Assembly (NCBI GenBank): GCA_045538295.1
Contig: JAZSRD010000058.1
Span: forward strand, 1-59,446
Reading direction: 5' to 3'
Length of the DNA stretch: 59,446 nt
DNA from: Eubacteriales bacterium
GTDB lineage: Bacteria > Bacillota > Clostridia > Oscillospirales > QAKW01
Within the stretch, counting starts at the first letter, position 1. Every line of letters begins with the position of its first letter. The notes beneath the pieces were generated by a model. The model was not told the origin of the DNA. It saw only the letters and a program-made list of their open reading frames with translations, and did no database searches. Both the position numbers and the translations under genes were made by a program. This document shows, in pieces, positions 2,385-50,109 of this stretch.

Positions 2385-3916
2385 TTCTTTAACTCCGTTT
2401 CTTTGGTGATCAGTTTGGTTATATCGCCGTAAAGCGCCCAGGTGCCGGCGGCTTGGAATTTTCCAATATCCGACGCCACAAAAAGTACCCCCCGCCGATA
2501 TGCCAACGGCAGAATGGGAGTGTACCGATCAAATACCTTTGCAAAATCGGTAAGACTCTTTTCCCCTGCCCGGTACCCGGCAGCAGCAGCCTCCAGTTTT
2601 TCAAACTGCACGCCGCTGTAGTTCACAGCGCTTCCGGCGGCAAAAAGGGTGGTGTTCAATGTTCTGCCGGTTTTTATCTCGCCCAGGTAAAGGGTATATT
2701 CCCCCGCCTGCAAGCGGGCGTTATAATCGGCACGGGGTACCGCTTCTATTTGGATCTTCACCCCCGACAGAGCAAGGCTTTCTGCCACCGCCTGCGCCAC
2801 ATCCCGGTGTACCTCGCTGCCCTCTGCCACCAGTAGCGGGAAGGTGAGTTGATTGCCCTCTTGGTCCAGCAGTTTATCTTCGGTAAGGTTCAGTTTCAGC
2901 TTGGCGGCGGCTTGCTTTTTCTCCAGGGCATCCGCCCAATTTTTCTCCTGCTCCAGCCCCTCGGCTTTATACCAGGCAGGCTGGAACGGGTAAGCCGTTG
3001 CCTCTGCCTGGTCCAGCAATACGTTTTTCACCAGCTTTTCCCGGCTGATCAGGTCGTTTAAAAAACCACGCAGTTTTGCATCTGCCAAAGGACCCTCCCG
3101 GCAGTTGACCCCTAAATATAAAAGGTTATCTCCCGCATAGGTCTGCACCTGGTAGTTTTTGCCTCCGGAGAACACCAAATCGCTCTCTGCCGTGGCAAAA
3201 TATACGTCTAAAAGCCCCACGGAAAACAAATTTTTGCGCTCTTTTTCGTTGGCGGGCTTTTTCAGATAGATCATGGCAATTCCCGGCTGCACAAAATAGT
3301 TGGCATTGGGCACCAGCACCCGCTCACCCCCGGAAACGGAAAACTGATAAGGACCGCAGCCCCCATCTCCGTTTTTTTGCTTAATGGGAATATCCAGGCA
3401 ATTCACAAAATCTGCATCCGGCTCTTTCAGGGTGATGGAAAGGGTGCGCTCATCCACCGCCGCATAGGTTTTCACATTACTCAGCCGCTTGTGATAGGGG
3501 GAGGTGGGGGTATTGCGTACCGTATAAAAGCTGGATGCCACATCCCCGGCGGTAACCGCCGTGCCGTCGCTGAATTTCAGATCCTTTTTCAACACCACTG
3601 TTACTTGGGTGCCCTTATTTTCTACACGCTCTGCCAGCACATAGTTTGCCTCTAATTTACCGTTCAGGCGAACAAGCGGACTATACACCAATTTAAGCAG
3701 CTCGTGGTTTTCACTGTTGGTGGTGGTGAGGGGGTTGATGTCCATATCCTCATAAAAGATCATGGAGATATAATGACGGGCGGGTACGGTTTGCATCTCC
3801 TCTTCACCCGTATTGCTATAGGCACCCAGTTGATCCTTCGGCTGATCAACTTCCACACCCTCACAGCCGGAAAGGAGCAGCAATGCCGCTATAAGCCATA
3901 AAATAATTCGTTTCAT
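2381..3916 (-). CDS. ABC-type solute-binding lipoprotein, family 5 (peptide/nickel type)-like
   Basis: Lipoprotein signal LLLLSGCEG. 511 aa, typical length and composition for family-5 SBPs. No adjacent permease genes. Overlaps neighbours by 4 nt, suggesting an operon. Confidence 0.65.
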   Translation of the reverse strand: MKRIILWLIAALLLLSGCEGVEVDQPKDQLGAYSNTGEEEMQTVPARHYISMIFYEDMDINPLTTTNSENHELLKLVYSPLVRLNGKLEANYVLAERVENKGTQVTVVLKKDLKFSDGTAVTAGDVASSFYTVRNTPTSPYHKRLSNVKTYAAVDERTLSITLKEPDADFVNCLDIPIKQKNGDGGCGPYQFSVSGGERVLVPNANYFVQPGIAMIYLKKPANEKERKNLFSVGLLDVYFATAESDLVFSGGKNYQVQTYAGDNLLYLGVNCREGPLADAKLRGFLNDLISREKLVKNVLLDQAEATAYPFQPAWYKAEGLEQEKNWADALEKKQAAAKLKLNLTEDKLLDQEGNQLTFPLLVAEGSEVHRDVAQAVAESLALSGVKIQIEAVPRADYNARLQAGEYTLYLGEIKTGRTLNTTLFAAGSAVNYSGVQFEKLEAAAAGYRAGEKSLTDFAKVFDRYTPILPLAYRRGVLFVASDIGKFQAAGTWALYGDITKLITKETELKK

Positions 3917-8238: not shown

Positions 8239-8450
8239 GACACAGAACGCAGAAAAAAGGTGTCCTGTTGTGACTGATGCCAATAATTATAGTTTGAACC
8301 AAGAGGACGGTTTCTACTCTTTCTCCTTGGTTTTAATTAAGGAAAAACTCGGCAAAGCCGAGTTTTTATTTAAATTTTCTGCTTTCCGTCGAAATGACCT
8401 CTCGGCGTATCACATACGCCTTCGGATCATTTCAACGAAATCTGCATTCT
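8239..8450 (+). repeat. family-1 four-hairpin composite repeat, single unit
   Basis: H1 8239-8265 (loop CGCAGAAAA), H2 8297-8332, H3 8344-8366 (AAAACTCGGC-AAA-GCCGAGTTTT), H4 8379-8447 (apex GGCGTAT-CAC-ATACGCC). Collinear with the units at 13648 and 28024-28481. Confidence 0.75.
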
Positions 8451-13647: not shown

Positions 13648-14262
13648 GGCACAGACCGCAGAAAAGGGAAGAAATATATAGGTTTGTGCCAATGTTTTAA
13701 GATAGAACAAGAGGAAAGAGTTTCTGCTCTTTCTTCTTGTTCTTTTTTATTTATAAGGAAAAATCCCGGCAGTGCCGGGATTTCATTTGATTTTTCTGCT
13801 TTCCGTTGAAATGACCGCTCGGCGTATCACATACGCCTTCGGGATCCTTTCAACGAAATCTGCACTCTTTTTCTTCTGTTCGCCAAACAGGCACAGACCG
13901 CAGAAAAAGGGAAGAAATATATAGGTTTGTGACAATGTTTTAAGATAGAACAAGAGGAAAGAGTTTCTGCTCTTTCTTCTTGTTCTTTTTATTTATAAGG
14001 AAAAATCCCGGCACTGCCGGGATTTCATTTGATTTTTCTGCTTTCCGTTGAAATGACCGCTCGGCGTATCACATACGCCTTCGGGATCCTTTCAACGAAA
14101 TCTGTGCTCTTTTTCTTCCGTTCGCCGGTTACTGCATAACGGCAGAAAAAAAGAGTGGCTTGTACCATCTTTTAAAGAAAAGCAAGGGAGAAGAGTTTCT
14201 ACTCTTTCTCCCTTGTTTTTTATTTTGTTTTTTGCAGTCTGTGCTTTTTTCTTCCACAAGCC
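13648..14262 (+). repeat. family-1 composite repeat, tandem array (two full 242-nt units plus one internally deleted unit)
   Basis: Units start at 13648 and 13890 and are near identical. In unit 1: H1 13648-13690, H2 13708-13739, H3 13761-13783, H4 13796-13865. The third unit (14127-14262) keeps H1', H2' and the tail of H4. Confidence 0.85.
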
Positions 14263-28023: not shown

Positions 28024-28481
28024 GGTGTGCAGATTTCGTCAAAACGATCCGAAGCTGTATGTGATACTGCGAGAGGTCGTTTTGGCGGAAAGCAGAAAAA
28101 TTTATATAAAAACTTGGCTCTGCCGAGTTTTTTCCTTAAGGCTAAAACAAAAGGAAAGAGCACAAACTCTTTCCCTTGTTTTATCTTTTAATATTGGCAC
28201 AGCCCATCATTAAATCTTATTTTCTGCGGTCTGTGCCTTTTTAATATCTGGAAAGACAACCGAAAAAGAGTGCAGATTTCGTCAAAACGATCCGAAGCTG
28301 TATGTGATACTGCGAGAGGTCGTTTTGGCGGAAAGCAGAAAAATTTAAATGAAAACTTGGCTCTGCCAAGTTTTTTCCTTAAATAAGAAGAACAAAGGGA
28401 AAGAGCAGTGACTCTTTCCCTTTATTAACCTTATACATTGGCACAGACCGGTATATTTTTTATTTTTCTGCGGTCGGTGCC
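28024..28481 (-). repeat. family-1 composite repeat, two tandem units (period ~244)
   Basis: Units at 28268-28481 and 28024-28237. The reverse complement is collinear with the 13648 unit (H1 GGCACCGACCGCAGAAAA..., H2, H3 AAAACTTGGC-AGA-GCCAAGTTTT, H4 apex GCAGTAT-CAC-ATACAGC). An extra H2-like hairpin sits at about 27946-27988. Confidence 0.85.
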
Positions 28482-28499
28482 TTTTTCGCTTGTCTTAAA

Positions 28500-48290: not shown

Positions 48291-48444
48291 AACCGATCTC
48301 CGTTTTATAGATTTTTTTCATTTTAACACTTTTTTGCCGGAAAAGCAATCCGTGTTTACGAAACGTTTACATATTGTTTCCTTGAAAAACAGCAATAGCC
48401 GTGTTAAAATATGGAATATAGTATATTAAAGGAGAAATATTACC

Positions 48445-48912
48445 ATGAGTTATTGCAAAAACTGCGGTAAACAATTAATAGAAGGGGCAGTGGCCTGCAC
48501 CGTTTGCGGGTGCCCTGTTGGCGTGGGTGCCAACCATTGTGATGCCTGCGGCGAAAAATTGGTGCCCGGCTCTGCCTATTGTGTTCACTGCGGCCATGCG
48601 GTGGTTCCCTCGGTAATGGTGCAGTCCAAACCGCCCCGTTCCTGCTCTCGCTATGCGGCAGCCATCTTCGGCATCGTGATGGGTGCCTTTGGTGTGCATA
48701 GCTTCTACCTGGGCAACGTGGGCAAAGGTCTGGGTCAGATCGCCGTTGCCCTTGCCGCCTACTGCCTGGTGATGCTCAACGTGCTTCCCGGCTTTGCCGG
48801 TGCCCTTCTTGCCGGGCTTTGGGGCTTTATTGAGGGCGTGCTGATTTTGGTGGGGGATATTAAAACCGACGAAGAGGGCAATCCCTTACGCCAATGGGGG
48901 GACGATGCATAA
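48445..48912 (+). CDS. zinc-ribbon plus TM2 domain protein
   Basis: Three CxxC pairs (CKNCG, CTVCG, CDACG, CVHCG), then a TM2-like GAFGVHSFYLGNVGKGLGQI. Confidence 0.7.
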   Translation: MSYCKNCGKQLIEGAVACTVCGCPVGVGANHCDACGEKLVPGSAYCVHCGHAVVPSVMVQSKPPRSCSRYAAAIFGIVMGAFGVHSFYLGNVGKGLGQIAVALAAYCLVMLNVLPGFAGALLAGLWGFIEGVLILVGDIKTDEEGNPLRQWGDDA

Positions 48913-48923
48913 AAATGGCACAT

Positions 48924-48987
48924 TTTCCGCCGATTCCAACGCTCGGCGTATCACATACGCCTTCGGATCTTTTGAACAAGATCTGTA
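48924..48987 (+). repeat. solo fragment of the family-1 H4 hairpin
   Basis: TTTCCGCCGATTCCAACGCTCGGCGTATCACATACGCCTTCGGATCTTTTGAACAAGATCTGTA. The apex is identical to the 8404-8420 copy. Confidence 0.6.
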
Positions 48988-49016
48988 TCCATTTTGACAC
49001 ATCTCTAAGAAAACCA

Positions 49017-49045
49017 TTGACACAAACCACAGGGTGTGGTATATT
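49017..49045 (+). promoter_or_regulatory. strong sigma-A promoter (TTGACA-17-TGgTATATT) for a short non-coding transcript
   Basis: TTGACA at 49017-49022, 17-nt spacer ending TGG, TATATT at 49040-49045. Confidence 0.6.
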
Positions 49046-49051
49046 AAAAAT

Positions 49052-49138
49052 AGAATAAGGCAAACCGATAGACGGTTCGCCCAAACTTTGTTAAGAAATA
49101 ACCGCTTAGTTTGGAGACAGGGCGGTTATTTCTTTTTT
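49052..49138 (+). ncRNA. candidate antisense sRNA (type I antitoxin), ~87 nt
   Basis: Bounded by the promoter above and the terminator AAATAACCGC-N15-GCGGTTATTT + TCTTTTTT (49098-49138). No ATG-initiated ORF. The 3' end is complementary to the last 13 nt and the 3' UTR of the minus-strand peptide gene. Confidence 0.55.
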
Positions 49139-49215
49139 GTCATTATATCGACAACAAGTGCGATGATTGCCACGATTAACGTTCCAAAAAGAAACATCGT
49201 TTCATAAGTAACCAT
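49126..49215 (-). CDS. 29-aa hydrophobic peptide, holin-like / type I toxin candidate
   Basis: Manual translation gives MVTYETMFLFGTLIVAIIALVVDIMTKKK: one TM helix plus a Lys tail. GGAGGG RBS 8 nt upstream, flanked by complementary CCCTCC and a decoy GGAGGG. Confidence 0.6.
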   Translation of the reverse strand: MVTYETMFLFGTLIVAIIALVVDIMTKKK

Positions 49216-49307
49216 AAGCACCGCCCTCCTTTCAGGAGGGAAAAGCGCCCTCCATTTTGTGAGAGGGCAACCGCCTACCGTTGTAGGTCCACCTTATTCC
49301 GTTGATT

Positions 49308-49336
49308 ATTTTATCACATTACGACAATTTATGCAA
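49308..49336 (-). promoter_or_regulatory. sigma-A promoter for the peptide gene (TTGCAT-17-TGaTAAAAT)
   Basis: The minus strand reads TTGCATAAATTGTCGTAATGTGATAAAAT. Predicts an ~85-nt structured leader. Confidence 0.5.
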
Positions 49337-49345
49337 GATAAATAT

Positions 49346-49379
49346 AACCGGAGCCAATGATCAACCATTGACTCCGGTT
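49346..49379 (-). terminator. terminator hairpin after the RHH gene
   Basis: AACCGGAG-N18-CTCCGGTT with T-rich sequence on both sides, 2 nt after the RHH stop codon. Confidence 0.55.
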
Positions 49380-49380
49380 T

Positions 49381-49557
49381 TTATTTCTTCAAATCAATTT
49401 CGCCGTTTTTCTCTTCAAAATTTCGAATACATTGACGAATTAAATATAAAATCTGCCCATTTGCTGAGCGACCCTCATATTTCGCAATGTAATGTAGCTT
49501 CCCATGTAATTCCGGGTCGACTTCAATACCCAAATGTTTGTTGTTCTTGTTTCTCAT
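49381..49557 (-). CDS. 58-aa ribbon-helix-helix (CopG/Arc-type) DNA-binding protein
   Basis: Manual translation gives MRNKNNKHLGIEVDPELHGKLHYIAKYEGRSANGQILYLIRQCIRNFEEKNGEIDLKK. Beta-strand/helix/helix pattern with GRS(x)N turn. AGGTGA RBS 5 nt upstream. Below the ORF-track cutoff. Confidence 0.65.
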   Translation of the reverse strand: MRNKNNKHLGIEVDPELHGKLHYIAKYEGRSANGQILYLIRQCIRNFEEKNGEIDLKK

Positions 49558-49572
49558 GTTATCACCTTTAAT

Positions 49573-49636
49573 CTTAATTTAAGTATATTTTAAGATTATT
49601 TTGTGGTACAATGTTGTTAGTATACTTAATTTAAGT
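49573..49636. promoter_or_regulatory. divergent promoter region with two copies of the palindrome CTTAA-T-TTAAG (candidate RHH operators)
   Basis: CTTAATTTAAG at 49573-49583 and ACTTAATTTAAGT at 49624-49636. Plus-strand extended -10 TGGTACAAT at 49604-49612. Minus-strand TTGTAC-18-TATACT overlaps the same DNA. Confidence 0.5.
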
Positions 49637-49665
49637 ACACTAAATCTTTGGCAAAAGGTGATTTT

Positions 49666-50109
49666 ATGACTTGTACATTTTTTGGACATAGAGATACACC
49701 CGGAGAAATAGAGCCGCTTTTACGGCGAGTTTTGTTGAATTTAATCCAAAAGGAAAAGGTTGATTTATTTTATGTGGGAAATCACGGAACCTTTGATTAT
49801 ATGGTTAGAAGAAATTTAAAAAGATTAAAAGAGGAATATCCCCATATCAATTATGCAGTAGTTCTTGCTTATATGCCGGGCGAAAAGAATGATTATAGAG
49901 AGGAGGATTATTCTGATACGATTTTTCCGGACGGACTTGAAAACACGCCACCTAAATATGCCATTATTAAACAAAATGAATGGATGATTGAAAGATCGGA
50001 TTATGTGGTTGTTTATGTTAAGCATACTTTTGGCGGTGCATCAAAGTTTAAAGACCTTGCAGAAAAGAAAGAAAAGAGGATAGTAGATATTAGAATGATG
50101 GCAGAATAA
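49666..50109 (+). CDS. SLOG-fold / DUF1273 (YpsA)-like protein
   Basis: MTCTFFGHRD N-terminus and FYVGNHGTFDYMV resemble the xxxTGxR and GxxxGxD motifs of DUF1273/SLOG proteins. Start at the ATG at 49666, behind AAGGTGA. Confidence 0.55.
   Translation: MTCTFFGHRDTPGEIEPLLRRVLLNLIQKEKVDLFYVGNHGTFDYMVRRNLKRLKEEYPHINYAVVLAYMPGEKNDYREEDYSDTIFPDGLENTPPKYAIIKQNEWMIERSDYVVVYVKHTFGGASKFKDLAEKKEKRIVDIRMMAE

Follow-up and report, generated by a model that had tools for sequence, protein, structure and literature searches.

The TxpA toxins, a family in which BsrG is also placed (PMC6563280), numbered 118 members in the survey of Fozo 2010, and members of the family had carried an annotation as holin-like toxins (PMC2887945). 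One of them, EF3263 of Enterococcus faecalis, is toxic, and an RNA of ~110 nt lies over the 3′ untranslated region (UTR) of its mRNA (PMC2887945). Overlap of toxin and antitoxin RNAs at their 3′ ends has been catalogued for TxpA/RatA and for BsrE, BsrG and BsrH, and long-distance interactions between the 5′ and 3′ ends, together with hairpins formed by the Shine–Dalgarno sequence (SD) and an anti-SD, are hallmarks of type I toxin mRNAs (PMC8594479). In Clostridia, homology searches have returned TxpA-like toxins only from Clostridium bolteae (reviewed in PMC6563280). Here, a locus of this kind was analysed in a stretch of 59,446 nt from a Eubacteriales bacterium (contig JAZSRD010000058.1 of assembly GCA_045538295.1; the whole stretch is referred to as the window). 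The locus is composed of a 29-codon open reading frame (ORF) on the minus strand and a convergent small RNA (sRNA) gene on the plus strand, and its sequence features point to a probable chromosomal type I toxin–antitoxin (TA) module of the TxpA/BsrG (Pfam Hol_Tox) kind. A preliminary description of the window had proposed such a module; the underlying observation was confirmed and the type I TA interpretation is supported. That description had overlooked a covarying helix between the 5′ and 3′ ends of the toxin mRNA, as well as the large conserved family to which the sRNA belongs.

The peptide encoded by the minus-strand ORF, MVTYETMFLFGTLIVAIIALVVDIMTKKK, has a long hydrophobic core broken by one Asp residue and ends in TKKK, in keeping with the ~30–60-aa, one-helix form of the family. 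The preliminary description had likened this hydrophobic, Lys-tailed peptide to holin-like toxins, and the likeness was borne out by the Pfam profile Hol_Tox (PF16935), which it matched over its full length at 34.4 bits (cutoff 23.3, E=1.9e-8). The close homologue P0002 scored 30.3 bits against the same profile, and TxpA of Bacillus subtilis matched at 31.3 bits over residues 1–17. Because TxpA matches PF16935, and given the link made by Fozo 2010 (PMC2887945), Hol-Tox is equated here with the TxpA type I toxin family. Below their thresholds, matches were also observed to the NCBIfam families ComI, an inhibitor of competence (27.2 bits), and PepG1 (23.7 bits, cutoff 70), and a PHROG holin family gave a weak match of 19.3 bits.

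Among 5.8 billion clustered proteins, searched with an X-padded query, P0002 was the single close homologue; it is encoded on L001, a metagenome contig of 859 bp. A 31-aa form of the peptide with a GTG start was absent from protein records, and tblastn against plasmids and phages gave no match, probably owing to low-complexity filtering. ORFs of 29-aa size escape gene callers. Compared with L001 and with a second relative, L109, the ORF displayed pN/pS values (ratios of nonsynonymous to synonymous change) of 0.06 and 0.12, respectively; the differences are mostly synonymous and the frame is kept, so that the frameshifts named in the preliminary description as a sign against its interpretation were not encountered in these relatives. 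The toxin ORF is under purifying selection, and the low pN/pS therefore identifies it as a real coding sequence. Positions 1–118 of L001 are repeated at 742–859, and this end repeat could be an artefact of assembly (circular or tandem) or else consist of flanking repeats.

On the opposite strand, the near-consensus promoter previously noted was the sole sigma-70 match returned by a promoter scan of 48400–50000. The predicted sRNA of ~88 nt was indeed devoid of an ORF, as neither AUG or GUG nor any SD-preceded start occurs on the plus strand at 49052–49140; a mechanical ORF at 49034–49207 exists on this strand, with its start upstream of the sRNA start site. The overlap between the sRNA terminator and the peptide stop codon was likewise found as described: the 3′ arm of the terminator includes the complement of the stop codon, and its U-tract corresponds, on the other strand, to the K-K-K codons. 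This terminator may be bidirectional. Complementarity of the sRNA to the 3′ part of the toxin mRNA is perfect and extends over the last five codons and the 3′ UTR; the predicted sRNA fold is more stable than expected (z=-4.1). The locus thus shows, at the level of sequence features, the 3′-overlap type I architecture, with a convergent non-coding RNA that has its own promoter and terminator, in agreement with the comparison to txpA/RatA and bsrG/SR4 drawn in the preliminary description. The linker between the two sRNA hairpins, predicted to be single-stranded in both RNAs, is a possible site of first contact; across the family alignment it was variable in sequence and length.

A covariance model, R1, derived from an alignment of 118 sRNAs, matched the window only once (81 bits, E=5e-17), and the paralogous loci for which the preliminary description had suggested a search were not found there. 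The next matches, at or below 22.7 bits (e.g. 28388–28488), were rejected as further copies, being ordinary terminators beside an unrelated repeat. Rfam 15 contains no family for the sRNA, and no antitoxin RNA family was matched even at E-values up to 10. On the toxin strand, the Rfam family BsrG (RF01412) was matched at 19.6 bits in the window, 31.9 bits in the relative L010 and 21.2 bits in L001; because these scores are below the gathering threshold of 55, membership of BsrG at the RNA level is not established.

To define the family to which the sRNA belongs, metagenome contigs were compared with the window. Positions 49040–49140 and 49262–49300 were matched by many different contigs, and the intervening ORF was not. 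An sRNA search pattern (ACCGATAGACGGT, gap, AACCGC, gap, GGGCGGTT) was found in 20 IMG/VR viral contigs, and a relaxed form of it in at least 120 stretches of species-representative genomes, in many genomic contexts and in some cases as tandem copies. A blastn comparison of the module with cultured phages gave no match. The family counts reported here rest on 124 unique modules among the matches listed. Their hosts belong for the most part to the Lachnospiraceae, Oscillospiraceae, Ruminococcaceae and Acutalibacteraceae; a few are Negativicutes or members of other groups. A few matches fell in non-Firmicutes bins, i.e. L061 (a metagenome-assembled genome of Bacteroides thetaiotaomicron), L141 (a Bacteroidaceae bin) and L030 (a Coriobacteriaceae bin), and may represent either mis-binned contigs or horizontal transfer. 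Six stretches (L030, L053, L088, L113, L116 and L118) carry two tandem modules a few hundred nt apart; some of these pairs mix toxin classes, such as MVTYEALF... and MDYLTMLF... in L113, which bears on possible cross-talk between sRNAs.

The sRNA promoter matched the consensus at 10 or more of 12 positions, at a fixed distance, in 110 of the 124 modules (43 of them perfect), compared with 3 of 124 after shuffling. The end of its -10 element lies mostly 14–21 nt ahead of the hairpin core, and the promoter hexamers are kept while the spacers diverge. A convergent small hydrophobic ORF ending in "KK-TAA" within the terminator stem was present in ~100 modules, and 88 modules possess both the conserved 5′-UTR box and an SD-preceded ORF of 21–50 codons (median 30). 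In 80 of these 88 the ORF ends 2–3 nt ahead of the ACCGCC of the terminator stem, with TAA as the stop codon in 75, and 78 of 84 distinct peptides have at least two Lys or Arg residues among the last four. The encoded peptides belong to at least four classes, namely x-T-Y-E (Hol_Tox), a large class with "..C..LGYxxG..TQK", "ATGYI..KKK" and others; representatives of the non-Hol_Tox classes had no match in Pfam, NCBIfam or PHROGs.

The toxin mRNA is predicted to start from the minus-strand promoter of the preliminary description, which was found as given, together with its leader of ~85 nt. Since only three of six positions of its -35 hexamer agree with the consensus, the promoter was not called by the scan; in the relatives L001, L109 and L039, the hexamer is aligned with TTGACA. 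An extended -10 element (TGn) is able to offset a weak -35 in sigma-A promoters. The -10 element ends 28 nt ahead of the conserved box, the range in the family being mostly 20–30 nt. The SD, located 8 nt ahead of the ATG, was paired in both the minimum-free-energy and the centroid folds of the toxin mRNA, as anticipated from its complementarity to CCCTCC, and GGAGGGC (49253–49247) is present as an alternative partner for the anti-SD; the CCCTCC-type unit occurs as a direct repeat. Across the family, the mean unpaired probability of the SD was 0.20, and a local anti-SD hairpin was observed in 42 of 88 modules, with covarying arms (e.g. CUCCC:GGGAG and CCCCC:GGGGG). At the other end of the transcript, termination at the distal hairpin, as originally proposed, is backed by a terminator scan match on the minus strand (49082..49058) covering the 3′ hairpin and its U-rich tail (9 terminator-like sites were found, compared with 2.3 expected); the proposal is qualified in that some toxin transcripts may already end at the first hairpin. 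Folding of the full-length mRNA as predicted (49303..49050) gave a z-score of -7.7.

In this fold, the first ~30 nt of the toxin mRNA pair with the last ~30 nt. The duplex energy of this long-range helix was -44 kcal/mol, compared with -16.2 kcal/mol for the local 3′ hairpin and -7.4 kcal/mol for the local 5′ structure. Its inner part is formed by the conserved 5′-UTR box, which was found in the family form GGTAGGCGG in 100 of 124 modules, and in which CGGUAGGCGGU pairs with ACCGUCUAUCG via two conserved G·U pairs. On the opposite strand these two G·U pairs become A·C mismatches, and in 87 of 88 modules the toxin-strand version of the helix was the more stable one, by ~10 kcal/mol. Pairing was also specific to the module, with -18.6 kcal/mol for a module's own 5′ and 3′ flanks compared with -11.8 kcal/mol for non-own flanks, and a median rank of 4 out of 93 for the own partner.

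Covariation in the outer helix was assessed in a gap-free alignment of 80 modules, using 500 shuffles and slid controls; the first three pairs of the helix served as an anchor, and the remaining nine had not been chosen for their pairing. In this alignment 84.8% of cells were paired (66.1% after shuffling), and 187 cells represented double changes (68 after shuffling). The covariation score was 0.530, compared with 0.194 for the shuffled alignments and no more than 0.166 for the slid controls, and none of the 500 shuffles reached the observed values. The outer helix thus varies between modules and strongly covaries. When the 3′ region was blocked in the folding calculation, the median unpaired probability of the SD changed from 0.17 to 0.045, with lower values in 25 of 88 modules and higher values in 6. 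As a secondary possibility, the folding models allow for an sRNA-driven toggle of the SD, in which the sRNA would free the 5′ box and the a:b and c:d hairpins would form; folding support for this toggle is modest, and the window's own module was nearly unchanged.

The outer pairs of the terminator stem also covary in the alignment of 118 sRNAs. The 13-mer of the sRNA 5′ hairpin, ACCGAUAGACGGU, and the terminator core are invariant in this set by construction, as the set was selected by pattern. Loose ends of metatranscriptome contigs at window position 49090 revealed variants of the 5′ hairpin (e.g. ACCGAAUAGACGGU, CTACCGAATAGACGGTTGCC and ACCGATGACGGTTGC), so that the 13-mer core varies within the wider family and pattern searches undercount its members. 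A full-text literature search for the 13-mer core found no paper, and the recurrence of one RNA framework with several unrelated peptides, in at least 120 species and in phage contigs, is apparently undescribed. It is quite conceivable, if somewhat short of probable, that a chassis consisting of the sRNA with its ACCGAUAGACGGU hairpin and KKK-stop terminator, the G·U-rich box and the end-to-end helix is kept while the toxin ORF is swapped, and that the 13-mer has an extra sequence-specific function. A cis-antisense RNA stays complementary to its target without sequence conservation, and conservation of the 13-mer core therefore suggests an additional function of this kind. If so, the 13-mer could mediate cross-neutralization between modules, with consequences for anti-addiction or for immunity of a resident towards an incoming phage; it could also be a recognition site for an RNase or another protein, or a processing signal that gives rise to a truncated mRNA species seen in the rumen (described below).

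RNA from relatives was available in public metatranscriptomes. For L109, the closest class-A relative, three studies each provided one bounded contig, with zero depth in the flanks on both sides. One edge of these contigs is flush with the 5′ arm of the helix and the other lies in or after the second hairpin, and they match the predicted toxin mRNA in size and bounds. For L068, a class B module of Butyrivibrio hungatei, a rumen metatranscriptome showed a depth of 100–470 over the 5′ UTR and ORF only (1426–1647). A recurrent fragment end, identified by an adapter junction, was located at 1426, immediately after the 5′ arm of the helix, which suggests that this RNA is processed at both ends. Its truncation could be due to termination at the bidirectional first hairpin or to processing, either of the helix or of the duplex with the sRNA; a bias of the library could also account for it.

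Several of these observations weigh against the type I TA interpretation. None of the public sequencing runs contained more than ~11% of the words of the locus, and all RNA contigs are derived from relatives and are unstranded. The abundant RNA of L068 stops at the first hairpin, without both arms of the long-range helix, and the 3′ end of the toxin mRNA and its processing pathway are therefore uncertain. The sRNA did not stand out clearly as an RNA of its own; a 108-nt contig over L068 that ends at the predicted sRNA start site, from a library that may contain DNA, was the sole indication. The toxin -35 is weak, the shift in SD accessibility upon blocking of the 3′ region is modest, and certain relatives of TxpA show no toxicity in heterologous hosts (PMC2887945). 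This last point, together with the harmlessness of several type I 'toxins' at native levels or in other hosts (Fozo 2010, PMC2887945), would also fit a small membrane peptide that is tuned by antisense RNA in a non-killing role, such as a ComI-like regulator or an accessory to a phage holin or antiholin. The weak likeness to ComI and to a PHROG holin family points in the same direction, as does an SD that is predicted to be closed almost always. Such a role is nevertheless considered unlikely, as the best family match is to Hol_Tox/TxpA and lies above the cutoff, TxpA, BsrG, EF3263 and PepG1 are toxic on overexpression (PMC2887945, PMC6563280), and an SD lock combined with an end-to-end helix and a strong antisense but weak sense promoter corresponds to the grammar of toxin control (PMC8594479).

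The weak toxin promoter raises the question of whether the module has fallen silent or is decaying, as a leftover of the family stranded in a small low-GC islet. Its absence from all sequencing runs and its presence as a single copy beside unrelated, horizontally acquired genes are consistent with this view; against it, none of the elements (ORF, SD, box, the two hairpins, sRNA promoter) is disrupted, substitutions relative to L001 and L109 are overwhelmingly synonymous, and the TGn element can compensate for the -35, which makes decay very improbable. Least credible of all is the proposal that the hairpins and inverted repeats are features of the DNA itself, for example the termini of a small mobile element or a cassette that terminates transcription in both directions, with the ORF and 'promoters' being incidental. 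A repeat, AACCATTGAC, brackets the module, and members of the family are found in tandem as well as in numerous genomic contexts, as would be expected of such elements, as would a position in a low-GC islet. Against this, complementarity depends on G·U pairs, the promoter hexamers are conserved while spacers diverge, ORFs retain their frame, SD, hydrophobic core, Lys tail and low pN/pS, and contigs from RNA libraries are bounded exactly by the module; chance alone would yield ~0.14 exact repeats of 10 nt in the 551 nt concerned. An inverted repeat or miniature inverted-repeat transposable element acting at the DNA level was rejected on account of the G·U asymmetry, which makes the toxin-strand helix the stronger one in all but one of the 88 modules.

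Under the type I TA interpretation, a moderately strong promoter would give rise to a toxin mRNA of ~250 nt on the minus strand (from ~49301 to ~49048), encoding the 29-residue single-helix membrane peptide with its Lys tail. Two structures would keep this mRNA silent, i.e. the locking of the SD in the CCCUCC-UGAAA-GGAGGG hairpin and the end-to-end helix. The stronger, near-consensus convergent promoter would produce the ~88-nt sRNA, and pairing of the two RNAs may begin at the single-stranded linker or through loop–loop contact of complementary hairpins. By analogy with txpA/RatA and bsrG/SR4, for which RNase III cleavage of the former and a dual action of SR4 have been reported (PMC6563280), pairing would open the 5′–3′ helix, the long duplex would be cut by RNase III and the mRNA would then be degraded. 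The SD would remain closed, or close further, so that the sRNA may reinforce the translation block. Upon loss of the sRNA, the toxin mRNA would persist and the peptide would be made, leading to membrane damage. The biological role could be in the maintenance of mobile DNA or in phage-related functions, because the module lies in a low-GC islet and has relatives on phage contigs. The coordinates of all features are listed in the table below.

Table. Coordinates of features of the TA module and its surroundings (window positions, unless a relative is named)
Feature	Position	Strand	Remarks
sRNA promoter TTGACA-17-TGgTATATT	49017..49045	+	11/12 positions, with TG
Antitoxin sRNA, ~88 nt (predicted)	49052..49140	+	5′ hairpin, linker, terminator
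sRNA 5′ hairpin GGCAAACCG-AUAGA-CGGUUCGCC	49059-49081	+	Predicted fold
Linker, predicted single-stranded in both RNAs	49083..49092	.	Unpaired in both folds
sRNA intrinsic terminator, 13–15 bp stem and U-tract	49093..49140	+	Arms 49093-49105 and 49122-49134
Toxin promoter -35 TTGCAT	49331..49336	-	Read from sequence; 3/6 consensus positions
Toxin promoter extended -10 TGaTAAAAT	49308..49316	-	17-nt spacer
Predicted mRNA 5′ end and outer-helix 5′ arm (CGGAAUAAGGUGGACC)	49286..49301	-	Pairs with 49053-49067
Conserved 5′-UTR box CGGUAGGCGGUU	49269..49280	-	Pairs with AACCGUCUAUCG of the 3′ hairpin
5′-UTR hairpin GCCCUCU ... GGAGGGC	49247..49268	-	Minimum-free-energy fold
Anti-SD/SD hairpin CCCUCC-UGAAA-GGAGGG	49224..49240	-	SD 49229-49224, anti-SD 49240-49235
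Toxin ORF, 29 aa MVTYETMFLFGTLIVAIIALVVDIMTKKK and TAA	49126..49215	-	ATG at 49215, TAA at 49128-49126
Toxin mRNA 3′ hairpin, core ACCGUCUAUCGGU, distal terminator	49053..49082	-	U-rich tail to ~49046
L109 RNA contigs (positions on L109)	2539-2811, 2587-2809, 2588-2812		273 nt, 223 nt and 225 nt, respectively
Arc-like ribbon–helix–helix (RHH) protein, 58 aa	49557..49381		Divergent partner of the YpsA/SLOG gene
YpsA/SLOG protein, 153 aa	49648-50109		Divergent partner of the RHH gene
Six-copy repeat	8401-8428(-), 13818-13845(-), 14060-14087(-), 28046-28073(+), 28289-28316(+), 48942-48969(-)		

The module is flanked on one side by a gene for a zinc-ribbon/TM2 membrane protein (48445–48912) and on the other by a low-GC gene pair, and the GC content is 0.30–0.40 around the module compared with ~0.55 in the flanks. 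Further away, genes named from their sequence alone as RecG and a small acid-soluble spore protein (upstream), and as a GDPD-family protein and a transporter (downstream), are presumably housekeeping neighbours. From relatives and neighbouring genes, the host is probably a spore-forming gut bacterium of the Oscillospirales. The low-GC pair consists of the divergent RHH and SLOG genes (GC 0.30–0.36 over 49381–50109). The intergenic region that they share (49532–49645) has matches in many metagenome contigs and carries CTTAATTTAAGTATA / TATACTTAATTTAAG as inverted repeats. A general linkage of this pair to the module was rejected, as a SLOG homologue was found only in L103, ~5 kb off. The exact direct repeat AACCATTGAC that brackets the whole TA module is located at 49012–49021 and 49363–49372, and could represent either a target-site duplication of an inserted cassette or a chance occurrence.

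A structured repeat with the core GATCCGAAG..GTATGTGATAC..CGAG is present in six copies in the window, zero copies being expected by chance, and one copy adjoins the TA module, in the interval that separates the stop codon of the TM2 gene from the sRNA promoter. Its full unit forms a long hairpin of ~65 nt, and the copies near 28 kb have their own terminator (fold z=-5.4); no Rfam family was matched by this repeat. Two other RNAs in the window scored above their gathering thresholds, i.e. a Gut-1 RNA (RF01706; 22037–22113, minus strand, 61.5 bits) and a cobalamin riboswitch (RF00174; 59203–59353, minus strand, 35.1 bits).

For the genome concerned, the analysis adds two unannotated genes, for a TxpA-type toxin and its antisense RNA, to a member of the gut Clostridia. 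The covariance model is a ready tool to annotate small toxins overlooked by gene callers, and the modules that it describes constitute a natural series of the same RNA control with different toxins, in which 3′-binding antisense control of structured mRNAs can be compared. They also provide candidates for roles connected with phages or mobile elements in the microbiome of gut and rumen.

Among described systems, the type I TA modules of Clostridioides difficile (e.g. the prophage-borne CD0956.2/RCd10) resemble the locus in being found in Clostridia, enriched in prophages, and composed of a small hydrophobic toxin with a Lys-rich C-terminus and a convergent antisense RNA. Their toxins are longer (34–59 aa) and, by description, are without sequence similarity to the TxpA and BsrG families of B. 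subtilis (PMC6563280). In hok/sok of plasmid R1 and aapA1/IsoA1 of Helicobacter pylori, a 5′–3′ interaction likewise keeps the mRNA compact and inert, and local SD/anti-SD hairpins are present; 3′ processing may be the activation step, which can be compared with the truncated species of L068. The antisense RNAs of these two systems bind the 5′ or translation-initiation region, and only of the processed mRNA, whereas that of the locus covers the 3′ end (49052–49140), on which the long-range helix itself depends. With hok/sok-type control, the locus thus shares only the principle of such a helix, and the toxins of hok/sok and aapA1 are unrelated to the peptide described here.

SprG/SprF of Staphylococcus aureus, whose toxin is of the PepG1 type, is likewise characterized by 3′-overlapping antisense RNA, and multiple paralogous modules per genome, as observed in relatives of the locus, raise the same question of cross-talk. 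It differs in that the PepG1 match is below the cutoff, SprG specifies two peptides from alternative starts, and the sRNAs are dissimilar. Closer similarity is evident with bsrG/SR4 of the SPbeta prophage, where antisense overlap at the 3′ end is likewise found, along with partial sequestration of the SD; weak matches to the Rfam family BsrG were noted above, and SR4 acts on both decay and translation, as in the model proposed here. BsrG is a peptide of 38 aa that starts with MTVYES and ends in KKK. Unlike in bsrG, the predicted structure of the toxin mRNA is dominated by the covarying end-to-end helix of ~29 bp.

The closest counterparts are txpA/RatA, from the skin element of B. subtilis, and EF3263/RatA. 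TxpA is longer than the locus peptide (59 compared with 29 aa), and RatA, at 222 nt, is longer than the ~88-nt sRNA, which is without an Rfam antitoxin match; to our knowledge, the conserved ACCGAUAGACGGU hairpin and a matching 5′-UTR box are undescribed for txpA. The toxins belong to the same Hol_Tox family, with an N-terminal M-x-T-Y-E, a single transmembrane helix and a basic C-terminus, and in txpA/RatA, as at the locus, a convergent antisense RNA, encoded within a horizontally acquired segment, extends over the toxin mRNA's 3′ end and into the last part of its ORF.

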